From: Candidatus Baldrarchaeota archaeon
Lineage (GTDB): Archaea; Asgardarchaeota; Baldrarchaeia; Baldrarchaeales; DXJG01
Direction: 5' to 3'
NCBI GenBank assembly: GCA_019056805.1
Contig: DXJG01000009.1
Coordinates: 90,001 to 122,000, forward strand
Length of the DNA: 32,000 nt
A program made the position numbers and the translations under genes. The first letter of the stretch is position 1; every line of letters starts with the position of its first letter. Under the pieces are notes generated by a model. It saw nothing but the letters and a program-made list of their open reading frames with translations, was not told the DNA's origin and searched no databases. Positions 9,773-14,269 of this stretch are shown one piece after another.

Positions 9773-10303
9773 TTGTTTGTGGACATCGGAATTTTCTCAA
9801 TAAATTTAAAGAACAACTTCGCTGCCCTCTTAAAATCGATCAATATCGTTAAATTTCGATGCATCCACTGCGGGCTTTGTTGCAGATTAGGCGGGCCCCG
9901 TTTAACAACTTTCGATATTAAAATACTGGAAAATACTGGTTACGACAGTAAACTCTTCTTAAATCCTTTAAAAGAAACTAAAAAGACATATAAAGGTAAA
10001 AAAGCAATGCAAGGTATCTTAAAAAGTAAGCTTAATGGAGAATGTATTTTTCTAAAGAGAAATCCTAACTCTGAAAAATATTTTTGTTCAATCTATGAGC
10101 ACAGACCCATTTTATGCAGACTGTACCCTTTTGACTGGGAACTAATAAAAACCGAAAACGAACACATCATAATTCTGTTGAAACTTCTTTCCAGTTGCTT
10201 GGGTATCAACGTTAAAAACGGAGAGCCTGTTGATGCATTATTCTTAAGAAAATACCTAGCCGATAGTATCAATAAATTATTTAGAATTACAAACTTAACA
10301 TAA
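9773..10303 (+). CDS. YkgJ-family cysteine-cluster protein (CxxCxxCC)
   Basis: FRCIHCGLCC ... CIFL ... CSIYEHRPILCRLYPF ... C. Confidence 0.85.
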   Translation: MFVDIGIFSINLKNNFAALLKSINIVKFRCIHCGLCCRLGGPRLTTFDIKILENTGYDSKLFLNPLKETKKTYKGKKAMQGILKSKLNGECIFLKRNPNSEKYFCSIYEHRPILCRLYPFDWELIKTENEHIIILLKLLSSCLGINVKNGEPVDALFLRKYLADSINKLFRITNLT

Positions 10304-10353
10304 CCCAGTAGGAGGTCATTAAAAGTAGATCTAAATTTTCGAGGGAAAACTAA

Positions 10354-10821
10354 ATGGATAAAACTCAACGTATAAATCTATTCAAAAAATGTTTGAAAAA
10401 CGTAGCAGAAGAATCAATGGGCGGACTTATACATTTCTATACAAAAGAAGCTTTACAAGGACCTCCAAACGGATGCTTTGTTCAGTTTGCAGGTGGAATC
10501 GAAGGATTAGCATGCGACATACCCATAATATGGCTTTCAAAAGAAGAAATAGAAAAAATCAGAAAAATACCAGAATTTTTTGAAGCAAAAGAAATAGGAT
10601 CCTTCCAAGCATACTTCGGAGTCAGCGACGAAGACATAGAAAAAATGGCAAACCTAACAGAAAAAATATTTACAGAAATATACAATCTACCGCCCAACTA
10701 TGAAATAATCGCCGAATACACAATAAATCAAAAAACAGGAATCAGAATATACCCAGATGGGAAAGAAGAAAAAATAAACTGGATAAAGGAATCTCTACTA
10801 AGAAAACTAAAACTAATCTAA
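10354..10821 (+). CDS. Hypothetical protein
   Basis: 155-aa ORF with A-ending codons like neighbouring plus-strand genes; GAGGG upstream; FVQFA motif; no confident family. Confidence 0.65.
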   Translation: MDKTQRINLFKKCLKNVAEESMGGLIHFYTKEALQGPPNGCFVQFAGGIEGLACDIPIIWLSKEEIEKIRKIPEFFEAKEIGSFQAYFGVSDEDIEKMANLTEKIFTEIYNLPPNYEIIAEYTINQKTGIRIYPDGKEEKINWIKESLLRKLKLI

Positions 10822-10945
10822 GCATAAAGTGATATTTCATAAAATCTTGTTATCAAGTTAACAAGACGATTTCGTGAAACAAGCCTTTTACGACATAGCA
10901 ACATTAAAACACGCATCAAAATTAATCTAAGACGAGTAAATTTTA

Positions 10946-10958
10946 GTAAAATTTAAAT
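10946..10958 (+). promoter_or_regulatory. BRE/TATA for sRNA-A
   Basis: GTAAAA followed by TTTAAAT (10952-10958), about 24 nt upstream of the GGGGG at 10982. Confidence 0.5.
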
Positions 10959-10981
10959 GTTAAGCCATATAATTGCTATTT

Positions 10982-11068
10982 GGGGGATGAAGAACCGCCA
11001 CTAATGCTGCAATCTTCCAGAATGAGATGTTTAAAGAAAGGGTGATGACCGCACCCTTTTCAGACCCC
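10982..11068 (+). ncRNA. Box C/D-type K-turn small RNA candidate (sRNA-A), atypically long
   Basis: Terminal stem GGGG/CCCC, box C AUGAAGA (10987-10993) and box D CAGA (11061-11064) in exact K-turn register. Internal C' GUGAUGA (11042-11048) lies 12 nt before box D. D' box is ambiguous. Confidence 0.6.
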
Positions 11069-11134
11069 TTCCCTTACGCGTTTTCCTCTGTTTTATGAAG
11101 TATTGAGGTGTAGTAGTCGTAATTTACATGTCAG

Positions 11135-11695
11135 ATGATGAAAATGAGAAATAATCTTAAGAGTAAGAAGCTTAAGCGAATTTCCTTTGATAGGAAATAT
11201 GCTATTGATATTTTACTAGGTATTAAAAGGGCTACGATAAGAAAGACAAATAAGGGGTTAAATTCCGGAGATGTTGTAGAATTTTATACTAGGGGCCCTA
11301 GGGGTAGGTTAATAGGTTGGGGGAAAGTAAAAAGGATAGTTAGGAAGAAAGTTTCGGAGTTAAGCGATCGTGATATAATGCTTGAAGGGTTTAGTGACCG
11401 GGGAAACCTTTTGTCTGTTCTTTCCTCTCATTACAAGGGTATTCAAGATGAAGATGAGATATTTCTAATAGAGTTTGAACTTGAAAAGCCGAGCATCTCC
11501 TTTTCTAAGGAAGTTTTTTCAAAAATTGCTAAGTTAGCCTTAGATAGAGATTTGAAGCTTTCTCAAAGTGACAAGAAATTGCTGGAATATTTTCTAAAAA
11601 CGTCCAAAAAAGATAAAATTATTCTTAGCACGGATCTAAGGGATGTTATACGTAAAATATATGTTAAGTTAAGATCTGAGGAGTTTTCTTCTTGA
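11135..11695 (+). CDS. ASCH-domain protein with C-terminal helical extension
   Basis: ISFDRKYAIDILLGIKRATIRK (GxKxxTxR), GDVVEF, LSDRDIMLEGF, IEFEL; about 70-aa extra C-terminal domain. Confidence 0.85.
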   Translation: MMKMRNNLKSKKLKRISFDRKYAIDILLGIKRATIRKTNKGLNSGDVVEFYTRGPRGRLIGWGKVKRIVRKKVSELSDRDIMLEGFSDRGNLLSVLSSHYKGIQDEDEIFLIEFELEKPSISFSKEVFSKIAKLALDRDLKLSQSDKKLLEYFLKTSKKDKIILSTDLRDVIRKIYVKLRSEEFSS

Positions 11696-12070
11696 TTTTG
11701 CTTCTTCGATTAGTTTTTTAATAAAAATTTCTATTTCTTTACAGTGTTTCTTAATTTCATTTCCAGTTACAGTGTGGCTCATGGGGCAGTCTTCATCAAC
11801 TAAGCAGGTTTTTTCACGTATTGAGTAGATTATTGGGTAAAATTTACATCCTGTTGGTCTATGATCGTATATTTTACATTTCATTGTTTCCGGGTTGAGA
11901 AAGAAGCAATGTCCATTGATGTTTTTTAGAAAAATGAAACCTTGTTTTTCTACTGTAAATTCTTTCCTAGAGTAGCCGAGAGACTCTAAACGTTTTATAT
12001 CATCTTCAGAGAGTAGCATTTCGGTGTTTAAGCAACATTGACCGCACCTTTTACACTGCATTTTAATCAC
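11669..12070 (-). CDS. Second YkgJ-family cysteine-cluster protein
   Basis: CKRCGQCC ... HCFFL ... CKIYDHRPTGCKFYP ... C..D.DCP. Confidence 0.88.
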   Translation of the reverse strand: MIKMQCKRCGQCCLNTEMLLSEDDIKRLESLGYSRKEFTVEKQGFIFLKNINGHCFFLNPETMKCKIYDHRPTGCKFYPIIYSIREKTCLVDEDCPMSHTVTGNEIKKHCKEIEIFIKKLIEEAKSRRKLLRS

Positions 12071-13211
12071 CTTCTATCCTATAAACTACACCTTGCTCGA
12101 GATCTCGTTCTTGTTTTACCCCTGGGATATCTTTAAATAGCAATCCTTTAAGCCAGGCAACTCTAAGTTTTCTTCGATATTTTTTAGAAGTTCTAAAGCT
12201 TTCTGCCACGTGCATAATATCTTCTAAAGATGTAAAGGCTTTTCTTTCGCGGATAAATTTCCAATAATTTTCTAAACTTGGATAATATCTTCCTTTGAGT
12301 TTTAATCCGCTGCATCTTGCTGTATGCAGGTCAAAAAATCCTTCTTTGCAAGTTCCAAAAGTTAGTTTATACTCTTTGCATAGTTCAGCTATCTGCTTCA
12401 AAACTTTGTGCCTATATGTAGTCTCAGCTCTTCTATAACCAGCGAGATCTTCAAACCCCTTCTTGAAATACAACTTTTCATATTTTTTAATCAACGTATA
12501 ATCGTATTTACCCAGAAACCTTTTGAAATTCTTCCAAACAGTTTTTGAGATTTTAAGCACAGAAGAAATTATATGACGAACTCCTAACCCAGACAATGTC
12601 GAAATAAGCTCTTTTAAAACGGTAGGATCATCATTAATGTAGGGGAGAATAGGATCTATTCTAACATTTACTGGAATTCCAGTTTCTGATAACTCTTCAA
12701 TTGCACGTAATCTTCGCTCTATAGACGGGGAAAATGGCTCTAATTTCTTCTTTAATTTTTCATCTAAAGTGATAATTGTAAAAAGAACGGCGCAAAGATT
12801 CTTTGATGAAAGTTTTGAAATTATATCAATATCTCTTAAAACAAGATCTGATTTTGTAGCAATAAAACAAGGAGAGTTGAAATTATAGAATTCTTCAAGA
12901 ACACCTCTTACCAACTTATATTTCTCTTCTGCTGTTTGGTAAGGATCTGTTGCCGACCCGAAATTTACAGGTTGAAGCCTTCCTTTCCACCATTTCAACT
13001 CTCTTCTCGCAAGCTCAACAGCATTTATACGAACTTCTATTCTCTTATGGTAATCTGGTCTGAGAGAACGGGCATAACAATAGACACAGGCATGTGAACA
13101 TCCAATATAGATATTTGCAGCAAAACGATGTGGACAGAATCTCCAAATTTCCCATGACCTGTCTATTGGATGTATAAGATTTTTCGCATTTTTCTCCTCG
13201 TAAACGACCAT
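12063..13211 (-). CDS. Radical SAM protein, SplB/Rv2578c-like family
   Basis: NIYIGCSHACVYCYAR (CxxxCxxC), FGSATDPYQ, ATKSDLVLRD, LEPFSPSIERRL, RIDPILP. Confidence 0.85.
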   Translation of the reverse strand: MVVYEEKNAKNLIHPIDRSWEIWRFCPHRFAANIYIGCSHACVYCYARSLRPDYHKRIEVRINAVELARRELKWWKGRLQPVNFGSATDPYQTAEEKYKLVRGVLEEFYNFNSPCFIATKSDLVLRDIDIISKLSSKNLCAVLFTIITLDEKLKKKLEPFSPSIERRLRAIEELSETGIPVNVRIDPILPYINDDPTVLKELISTLSGLGVRHIISSVLKISKTVWKNFKRFLGKYDYTLIKKYEKLYFKKGFEDLAGYRRAETTYRHKVLKQIAELCKEYKLTFGTCKEGFFDLHTARCSGLKLKGRYYPSLENYWKFIRERKAFTSLEDIMHVAESFRTSKKYRRKLRVAWLKGLLFKDIPGVKQERDLEQGVVYRIEGD

Positions 13212-13400
13212 TTTTATCCCTAAATTCTGTTTTAATACTTTTCAAGATTTTCTATGCCCGAAGGTTCAAAATATATGTTAAACTTCATTCTACGATCTTA
13301 GTTATTGTGAAAGAGTTATGGATCGACACTTTTATTTTATTGTTTGCATAAGTAAATAATACTATGTCAACCTTTTCGATATTTTATTGGAGGAACGTTA

Positions 13401-13664
13401 ATGCCAGCTAAAAAGGTTAAAGCGATATATATTGATGAAAAACTCTGTAAAGGATGCCATATTTGTATAGAATTTTGTCCACAAAAAGTTTACGTTAAAT
13501 CTGAAAAAATGAACGAGAAAGGAGTATATCCACCAATTCCTCGTTACATAGAAAAATGTGTTGCATGCAAGTTATGTGAGCTTTATTGCCCAGACTTTGC
13601 AATTGTAGTTGACGTAGAAGAACCAACTTCTGAACCAAAGGACGTACCAACGATTAAATCCTAA
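13401..13664 (+). CDS. 2x[4Fe-4S] ferredoxin (2-oxoacid:ferredoxin oxidoreductase delta-subunit-like)
   Basis: CKGCHICIEFCP and CVACKLCELYCPDFAI; N.KG.YP linker typical of KorD/VorD; RBS GGAGG. Confidence 0.88.
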   Translation: MPAKKVKAIYIDEKLCKGCHICIEFCPQKVYVKSEKMNEKGVYPPIPRYIEKCVACKLCELYCPDFAIVVDVEEPTSEPKDVPTIKS

Positions 13665-13740: not shown

Positions 13741-13813
13741 TTTCAAATTTTCAGTGTCCACGGCATCAATCATCGCGTAAGCTCAGAGTCGTCGCCAGTC
13801 ATCATGTTCGAAA
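13741..13813 (-). ncRNA. Canonical dual-guide box C/D sRNA (sRNA-B)
   Basis: Minus strand reads AUGAUGA (C, 13805-13799), 12-nt CUGGCGACGACU, CUGA (D'), GC-UUAC-GC-G linker, AUGAUUG (C'), 12-nt AUGCCGUGGACA, CUGA (D, 13754-13751). Flanking UUUCGAA/UUUGAAA stem; TATA about 25 nt upstream. Confidence 0.9.
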
Positions 13814-13830
13814 ATAAATGAAACCTAACC

Positions 13831-13839
13831 TTATATAAA
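13831..13839 (-). promoter_or_regulatory. TATA box for sRNA-B
   Basis: Minus strand TTTATATAA, about 25 nt upstream of box C. Confidence 0.6.
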
Positions 13840-13927
13840 TTATCTCATGTTTTTTAACATAAATTATGCATTATTGGTTCGAAATTTATTTCTGTAATTT
13901 AAAATTAAACCGATTTTAACTAAGTGT

Positions 13928-14269
13928 TTAGTAGTCGCTAAATTTTTTAAGAAGTTTAAAATGAATTACGGTAATTTTATCATTCGGTTTAATTTGACCA
14001 TAATATTTTCTCAAAGCTTTAAAAAGCTCTTCTTTTGTTAAAAATCCATCTTTTACAGCATCTTCTTCGCTTAATTCAGATATTTGTGTGTATTTAACTT
14101 CTGTTATCTCCGCCTCCGCATATATTCTATTTTGAGAGGTAATTAAAACCTTTTCTCCAATTTTAAAGTCTCTAATACCTTTTCTAATGGTTGTTATCTT
14201 TTTCCCCTCAAGTATTTTCTTAATATAAGACTCATCGAAATCTAAGGTCTTCTTACGCATTTTACCCAC
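13928..14269 (-). CDS. ASCH-domain protein (single domain)
   Basis: LDFDESYIKKILEGKKITTIRKG, GEKVLI, LSEEDAVKDGF, IHFKL. Confidence 0.88.
   Translation of the reverse strand: MGKMRKKTLDFDESYIKKILEGKKITTIRKGIRDFKIGEKVLITSQNRIYAEAEITEVKYTQISELSEEDAVKDGFLTKEELFKALRKYYGQIKPNDKITVIHFKLLKKFSDY

Follow-up and report, generated by a model that had tools for sequence, protein, structure and literature searches.

An unannotated gene in a Baldrarchaeota genome encodes a box C/D sRNA that most likely clamps both strands of 16S rRNA helix 34 and guides 2'-O-methylation of G1061 and C1190. We place the probability of this reading, which is drawn from sequence complementarity, at about 0.68. The gene lies in a stretch of 32,000 nucleotides (hereafter the window) from Candidatus Baldrarchaeota archaeon, positions 90,001 to 122,000 of contig DXJG01000009.1. 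The analysis contributes the gene itself, together with two predicted methylation sites, Gm1061 and Cm1190, beside the decoding region.

Anatomy and conservation of the sRNA gene

The gene occupies the minus strand and displays a complete box C/D layout, with its boxes spanning positions 13805-13751 of the window. Box C (AUGAUGA, 13799..13805) did not vary in any aligned homolog, nor did box D' (CUGA, 13783..13786) vary in homologs. Box C' (AUGAUUG, 13767..13773), which is degenerate but keeps its GA, and box D (CUGA, 13751..13754), which is followed by an A/U-rich tail, were both constant within the genus. The D' guide (CUGGCGACGACU, 13787..13798) and the D guide (AUGCCGUGGACA, 13755..13766) are each 12 nt long, with predicted pairing to 16S 1057-1068 and 1186-1197, respectively. 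The 9-nt K-loop linker (13774..13782) differs between homologs. The register of box C' was settled by the homolog of one sister species (G002), a variant that breaks the alternative register. The box order C, D', C', D is that of archaeal C/D RNAs, boxes C, D' and D match the consensus, and both a kink-turn and a K-loop are possible. From box C to box D the sRNA measures 55 nt (50-70 nt for the class), and its two guides measure 12 nt each (10-12 nt for the class).

A TATA box (TTTATATA, 13832..13839, minus strand) lies 34 nt ahead of box C. It is preceded by a BRE-like purine-rich element (13840..13847, minus strand), recognized from the sequence, and every Baldrarchaeum homolog has a similar element ahead of its TATA. 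TTTATAT was kept 33-35 nt upstream of box C in all homologs of the genus, and the usual archaeal spacing would place the transcription start near 13809. These findings confirm the description given in the first-pass annotation, namely a dual-guide C/D sRNA with perfect C, D' and D boxes, 12-nt spacers and its own TATA; they add that box C' is degenerate and that boxes, guides and TATA are conserved. Of the interval assigned to it there, 13741-13813, the sRNA itself held up, but the AU-rich terminal stem included in that interval was weak and unconserved (fold z = -0.8).

The sRNA gene is intergenic. On one side lies a convergent 2x[4Fe-4S] ferredoxin gene (13401..13664, plus strand), which is syntenic in the genus, and on the other a stand-alone ASCH gene of 113 aa (13928..14269, minus strand; PF04266, E 3e-19), which ends ~90 nt before the sRNA TATA. 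The surrounding cluster (9773-13664) includes two CxxCxxCC genes and a radical SAM gene, likewise syntenic in the genus. A nearby gene encodes an ABCE1 that shares 92% identity with its counterpart in a Baldrarchaeota MAG, which places the host in Baldrarchaeia (Asgard).

We scored the sRNA with a hand-set box weight matrix, using dinucleotide shuffles of the window and simulated whole genomes as the null. Of 200 window shuffles, one reached its box score of 28.6; none of the 3 simulated genomes did so. Boxes, guides and TATA were kept in two sister species of the same genus (G001, E 1e-25; G002, E 3e-21), and the sRNA was syntenic in two of the three same-genus genomes as well as on ten metagenome contigs, which are partly redundant. 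No ASCH match was found in the third same-genus genome, indicating that the sRNA region is probably unassembled there. The host genome contains a fibrillarin gene (E 8.5e-101). It also harbors at least 13 intergenic, unannotated C/D sRNAs as judged by looser scans, where a strict scan gave only two, indicating that the class is common in this genome.

If the boxes had merely fallen into place by chance in AT-rich intergenic DNA, with no RNA gene behind them, then the lack of an Rfam family at gathering score (the best match reached 16.6 bits versus 42 for sR2) and the lack of a significant fold would be expected. However, the rarity of the score among the shuffles argues against such a coincidence, as does the pattern of conservation: across 12 genus homologs and 2 homologs of another family, boxes and guide cores were near-invariant, while the flanks diverged. 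All 7 of the sub-threshold Rfam matches were to C/D families. We consider a chance arrangement extremely improbable and the locus almost certainly a real, conserved, canonical C/D sRNA.

Predicted targets on helix 34 and elsewhere

Neither 16S nor 23S was found in the host assembly, and no 16S was found for the genus; targets were therefore taken from the rRNA of relatives, including a set of 29 Asgard 16S sequences (positions follow E. coli numbering). Against 16S 1057-1068, the D' guide formed an uninterrupted run of nine pairs and, beyond an A-C mismatch at its position 3, two further pairs, placing the +5 nucleotide on G1061 (target core CGUCGCCA at 1060-1067). The site was exact in 21 of the 29 Asgard 16S sequences, including that of G004, a member of the same order. 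The helix 34 duplex proposed earlier, with 9 bp plus 2 pairs around one mismatch, was accordingly recovered in these 21 sequences, and G1061, the G of CCG to which the +5 rule had pointed, was the best fit of the D' guide in relatives' 16S and is retained as the predicted site. Positions 2-11 of the D' guide were invariant in the genus and in family f6, position 1 varied freely, and C/U variation at position 12 keeps pairing with G1068.

The D guide, listed in the first-pass annotation as having an unknown target, found a plausible one at C1190 on the opposite strand of the same helix. Against 16S 1186-1197, in the 3' strand of helix 34, it formed 8 contiguous Watson-Crick pairs plus one more, with an A-G mismatch at position 3 and the +5 nucleotide on C1190 (target core CCACGGCA at 1189-1196). 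This site is the commonest variant, found in 11 of the 29 Asgard 16S sequences, and in that variant the +5 pair is Watson-Crick for both guides; in the same-order G004 the +5 pair of the D guide is a G-U wobble. Over 16S and 23S together (5.2 kb of rRNA), the best site of the D guide by stacking energy was the helix 34 strand facing the D' site, and for a D match of that quality to fall in the region linked to the D' site, P was about 0.003-0.007. C/U variation at position 8 leaves the pairing with G1193 intact, and the guide is conserved in the genus. Taken alone, each guide constitutes weak evidence: shuffled guides gave an equal match somewhere in rRNA with P 0.14-0.29 for D' and 0.08-0.12 for D.

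In both 16S duplexes the mismatched base is guide position 3, which lies two bases away from the target nucleotide. C1059 was invariant across the 29 Asgard 16S sequences, and a search of metagenomes for a 16S variant that would pair perfectly with both guides (U1059 plus U1188) gave no match. Several of the other host C/D sRNAs mismatch relatives' rRNA at guide position 2-4. Two further rRNA sites were set aside. A D-guide site at 16S 1067-1078 was wobble-rich (-5.7 kcal/mol), and a target at the 23S peptidyl-transferase center reached 9 bp only in the distant G005 and 7 bp in the same-genus G003, where it fits the D guide of another sRNA (C17:79115) better. No good tRNA site was found among the 31 host tRNA genes found, an incomplete set.

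Two alternative assignments were weighed against the helix 34 clamp, and we judge both to be unlikely. The D' guide may be the sole active guide, directed at G1061, with the D guide being an orphan, non-methylating, or intended for another RNA such as an unassembled tRNA. The D duplex is just 8+1 bp with a mismatch, its +5 pair is a wobble in G004, and the tRNA set is incomplete; moreover, C1190 is absent from the sites predicted in seven archaea (PMC4644070), and orphan guides make up 28% of those in Pyrobaculum (PMC6009581). Nevertheless, conservation of the D guide within the genus is strong and its C/U change is neutral for pairing, its site lies exactly opposite that of the D' guide, and no tRNA present offers it a good site.

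The other alternative, about as improbable, holds that the sRNA targets domain III of 23S instead of or as well as 16S, with the D' guide on a hairpin at G003 23S position 1716 and, as the other half of a classical closely linked pair, the D guide at 1664, 52 nt upstream. Positions 2-10 of the D' guide are perfectly paired in the only same-genus 23S (G003), which would account for the A that never varies at position 3; D' stacking there is -20.6 kcal/mol versus -18.1/-20.2 for 16S, and the site 52 nt away is the second-best for the D guide. However, the D duplex carries one mismatch and two G-U pairs, the hairpin varies in the Asgard 23S matches retrieved, with the perfect site (GUCGUCGCC) present only in G003, and the D' site sits inside a stable hairpin (-14 kcal/mol). 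Guide positions 11-12 are unpaired on 23S, yet conserved for pairing with 16S. In addition, the distant family f6 has an identical D' guide alongside a partner guide that aims at helix 34, and the mismatch at position 3 is not peculiar to the D' guide, since it also occurs in the D guide and in other host guides. Dual use of the 16S and 23S sites is possible. The same-genus 23S gene (L036, G003:C116) is 3632 nt long compared to ~3090-3170 nt in two relatives, which suggests that it holds insertions or introns.

As the first-pass annotation had proposed, we searched Asgard genomes for homologous sRNAs. The guide-pattern search of 400 genomes across the phylum recovered G1061 guides in the genus and in families f6 and f11, and the patterns used gave no convincing G1061 guide in other families of this set. 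Most pattern matches were chance matches in coding DNA, L189 among them. In both f6 and f11 the G1061 guide is paired with a different, nearby 16S partner guide. The f6 sRNA (G008 L117/L224, C13:1774-1796, and contig L191) shares an identical D' guide with G002 but differs in its D guide; the latter fits best at G1197, again in the 3' strand of helix 34 (P 0.01-0.02 across all rRNA). Relative to the Asgard 16S consensus, the f6 guides differ at precisely two positions, the base-pair partners 1059 and 1198, so that the 16S of this lineage may carry a U1059-A1198 pair; no 16S was found in G008 or in the f11 genome (G013). In f11, it is the D guide that points at G1061, with C1059 fully paired and a base compensated for the GUCAG variant, and the partner guide fits ~G1084. 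That locus (L256:2470-2610, G013:C17) contains two tandem C/D sRNAs ~35 nt apart, and the guide pointing at G1061 is the D guide of the first.

A second canonical C/D sRNA of the host (C9:293982-293935, minus strand) carries guides that fit 16S G1197 and G1050, the former of which we take to be the position of yeast Gm1428 and the base-pair partner of C1060. Together, this sRNA and the one in the window cover 16S 1046-1068 and 1186-1204, suggesting that guides tile both strands of helix 34.

The ASCH neighbor and a possible link to helix 34 acetylation

The ASCH protein encoded beside the sRNA shares with the E. coli YqfB/ASCH ac4C amidohydrolases a threonine-type GxKxxTxR octapeptide (bioRxiv 10.64898/2026.02.27.708502), here GKKITTIR. 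Unlike YqfB, it has in DAVKDGF an Asp at the Glu74-like position, a correspondence that is a motif match only, and it scored far under the family cut-off (NF003443, 26.9 bits versus 93). The ASCH domain named in the first-pass annotation was thus borne out, but the assignment to the ac4C-hydrolase family fell below threshold. A comparison with solved structures gave no significant match (best E 0.037).

The host genome encodes Nat10/TmcA, and an ASCH gene directly follows Nat10/TmcA in 5 of 5 genomes checked, representing three families (C9:174617-177705 in the host; L176, L178, L179 and L180); these adjacent ASCH genes carry a C-terminal extension. In G004, Nat10 has orthologues of the two window ASCH genes on either side, that of the sRNA neighbor being 1.8 kb away. 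All 19 of the ASCH proteins tested in a 2026 preprint removed ac4C from tRNA in vitro, the activity being on nucleoside and tRNA, not rRNA (bioRxiv 10.64898/2026.02.27.708502). Taken together, this activity and the Nat10 adjacency make an ac4C role for the ASCH protein plausible.

The window also encodes a long C/D-type RNA (10982-11068, plus strand), conserved in the genus, just upstream of its other ASCH gene (11135-11695). The guides of this RNA fit 23S at ~G003 2091 and 2062, and no ac4C-related site. In G004, a C/D sRNA (L214:9514, G004:C56, minus strand) lies 68 nt from the orthologue of the sRNA-neighbor ASCH gene, and its D' guide matches 23S near the peptidyl-transferase center at 12 of 12 positions. 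An ASCH gene borders a C/D RNA in three cases, which are small numbers with unrelated targets.

The middle C of CCG in helix 34, C1060, is presumably the counterpart of yeast ac4C1280. Yeast C1280 is located in h34 (PMC9226516, PMC12848939). In S. solfataricus, ac4C was found only in helix 45 (PMC11698992). In P. abyssi, a helix 34 ac4C1028 is positioned 13 nt before ac4C1041; ac4C1028 would correspond to C1063 rather than C1060.

The first-pass annotation regarded the sRNA as notable through its ASCH neighbor. One could accordingly propose that the sRNA is tied to turnover of ac4C in helix 34, guiding or licensing Nat10 on C1060 as snR4 does, or being co-regulated with an ASCH deacetylase. 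A functional forerunner of snR4 would open both strands of helix 34, keep a conserved mismatch at the first C of CCG and in this way present C1060 to Nat10, or time acetylation against Gm1061, with ASCH removing the mark. The target G1061 does belong to the CCG that eukaryotes acetylate, being its final G, the host encodes Nat10/TmcA, and the D' mismatch, which two families have conserved, lies opposite the first C of CCG. The bordering of both window ASCH genes and the G004 orthologue by C/D RNAs, the position of the ASCH orthologues around Nat10 in G004 and the in vitro activity of the 19 tested proteins point in the same direction. Nevertheless, we consider both the general proposal and its forerunner version very unlikely. 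The snR4 and snR45 guides flank their target C, which is held in a pocket (PMC9226516, PMC12848939), whereas C1060 is here Watson-Crick paired under a canonical +5 arrangement. The position-3 mismatch recurs in the D guide and in other host guides, and the f11 guide pairs C1059 perfectly. The neighborhood argument is weakened further: the sRNA has its own TATA in a separate, promoter-like element, the G1061 guides of f6 and f11 lack an ASCH neighbor, and the sRNAs beside other ASCH genes fit unrelated 23S sites. The ASCH orthologue of the sister family itself adjoins a different, 23S-directed sRNA; the linkage is confined to the genus. Finally, sR5 of S. acidocaldarius is predicted to guide the same site, and in the related S. 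solfataricus ac4C was found in helix 45 only (PMC11698992). If true, the forerunner reading would make this the first archaeal system of RNA-guided rRNA acetylation; despite being unlikely, it alone would matter more than the methylation sites, because RNA-guided archaeal acetylation is an open question (PMC9226516) and has been hypothesized (PMC7005279).

Proposed mechanism and comparison with known systems

Returning to the helix 34 clamp, we infer that the sRNA, an archaeal box C/D sRNA of ~60 nt, is expressed from a transcription unit of its own and pairs with the 16S of its own host. L7Ae would bind the C/D kink-turn and the C'/D' K-loop, and Nop5-fibrillarin would assemble on the sRNA. 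Each 12-nt guide would then pair with pre-16S rRNA, D' with 1057-1068 in the 5' strand and D with 1186-1197 in the 3' strand, allowing fibrillarin to 2'-O-methylate G1061 and C1190. With both strands of helix 34 held, which are ~130 nt apart in sequence, the sRNA may additionally assist the folding of the 30S head as a chaperone. We know of no eukaryotic 2'-O-methylation at either G1061 or C1190. The literature searched contained no dedicated study of Asgard C/D guide RNAs, a topic that is barely covered. The G1061 site, the helix 34 hotspot and the opposite-strand design are already on record, and no principle is changed.

The nearest relative by target is sR5 of S. acidocaldarius, in which a related D' guide directly follows box C and is predicted to act on the same nucleotide, alignment G1037 (PMC4644070, Additional file 1). 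Counting in the alignment of Dennis et al. 2015 identified alignment G1037 as the G of the helix 34 CCG, i.e., G1061. In contrast to the window sRNA, sR5 forms a pair with C1059 and bulges out a U instead of showing a position-3 mismatch, and its D guide is directed at alignment G1075, 38 nt downstream, rather than at the opposite strand. Ignicoccus sR147 and Pyrobaculum calidifontis sR3, sR32, sR47 and sR49 have guides at the neighboring helix 34 positions U1062, G1197, G1064 and G1050 (PMC4644070), making helix 34 a known guide hotspot. None of these combines G1061 with C1190; C1190 (alignment C1177) and the G1061-C1190 combination are both absent from the seven-species list (PMC4644070). 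Looser criteria have been used for a second, linked guide (Lui et al. 2018).

Yeast snR4 is likewise a box C/D RNA at the helix 34 CCG (PMC9226516, PMC12848939). Its two guides flank the target C, Sni445 and Kre33 are needed, and it directs no methylation, whereas the window sRNA is of canonical size and pairs across the C. The snR4/snR45/SNORD13 design, with antisense elements flanking an unpaired C, was not seen in the window sRNA: C1060 pairs with guide position 4, and both guides follow the canonical +5 rule.

By architecture, the closest match is to Nanoarchaeum equitans sR15 and sR17, each of which directs two guides to both strands of one 16S helix at sites >100 nt apart (PMC4644070, Table 3 and Fig. 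5). In the 16S of G005 the two sites of the window sRNA lie 138 nt apart (1068 and 1206) on the facing strands of helix 34, as judged from complementarity only. The two systems differ in that sR15 and sR17 act at helices 30 and 28 instead of 34 and were detected by RNA-seq, while the window sRNA was recognized by comparison. Such long-range dual guides have been proposed as folding chaperones (PMC4644070), and the window sRNA, together with the second helix 34 sRNA of the host, provides a clean case for testing that idea.
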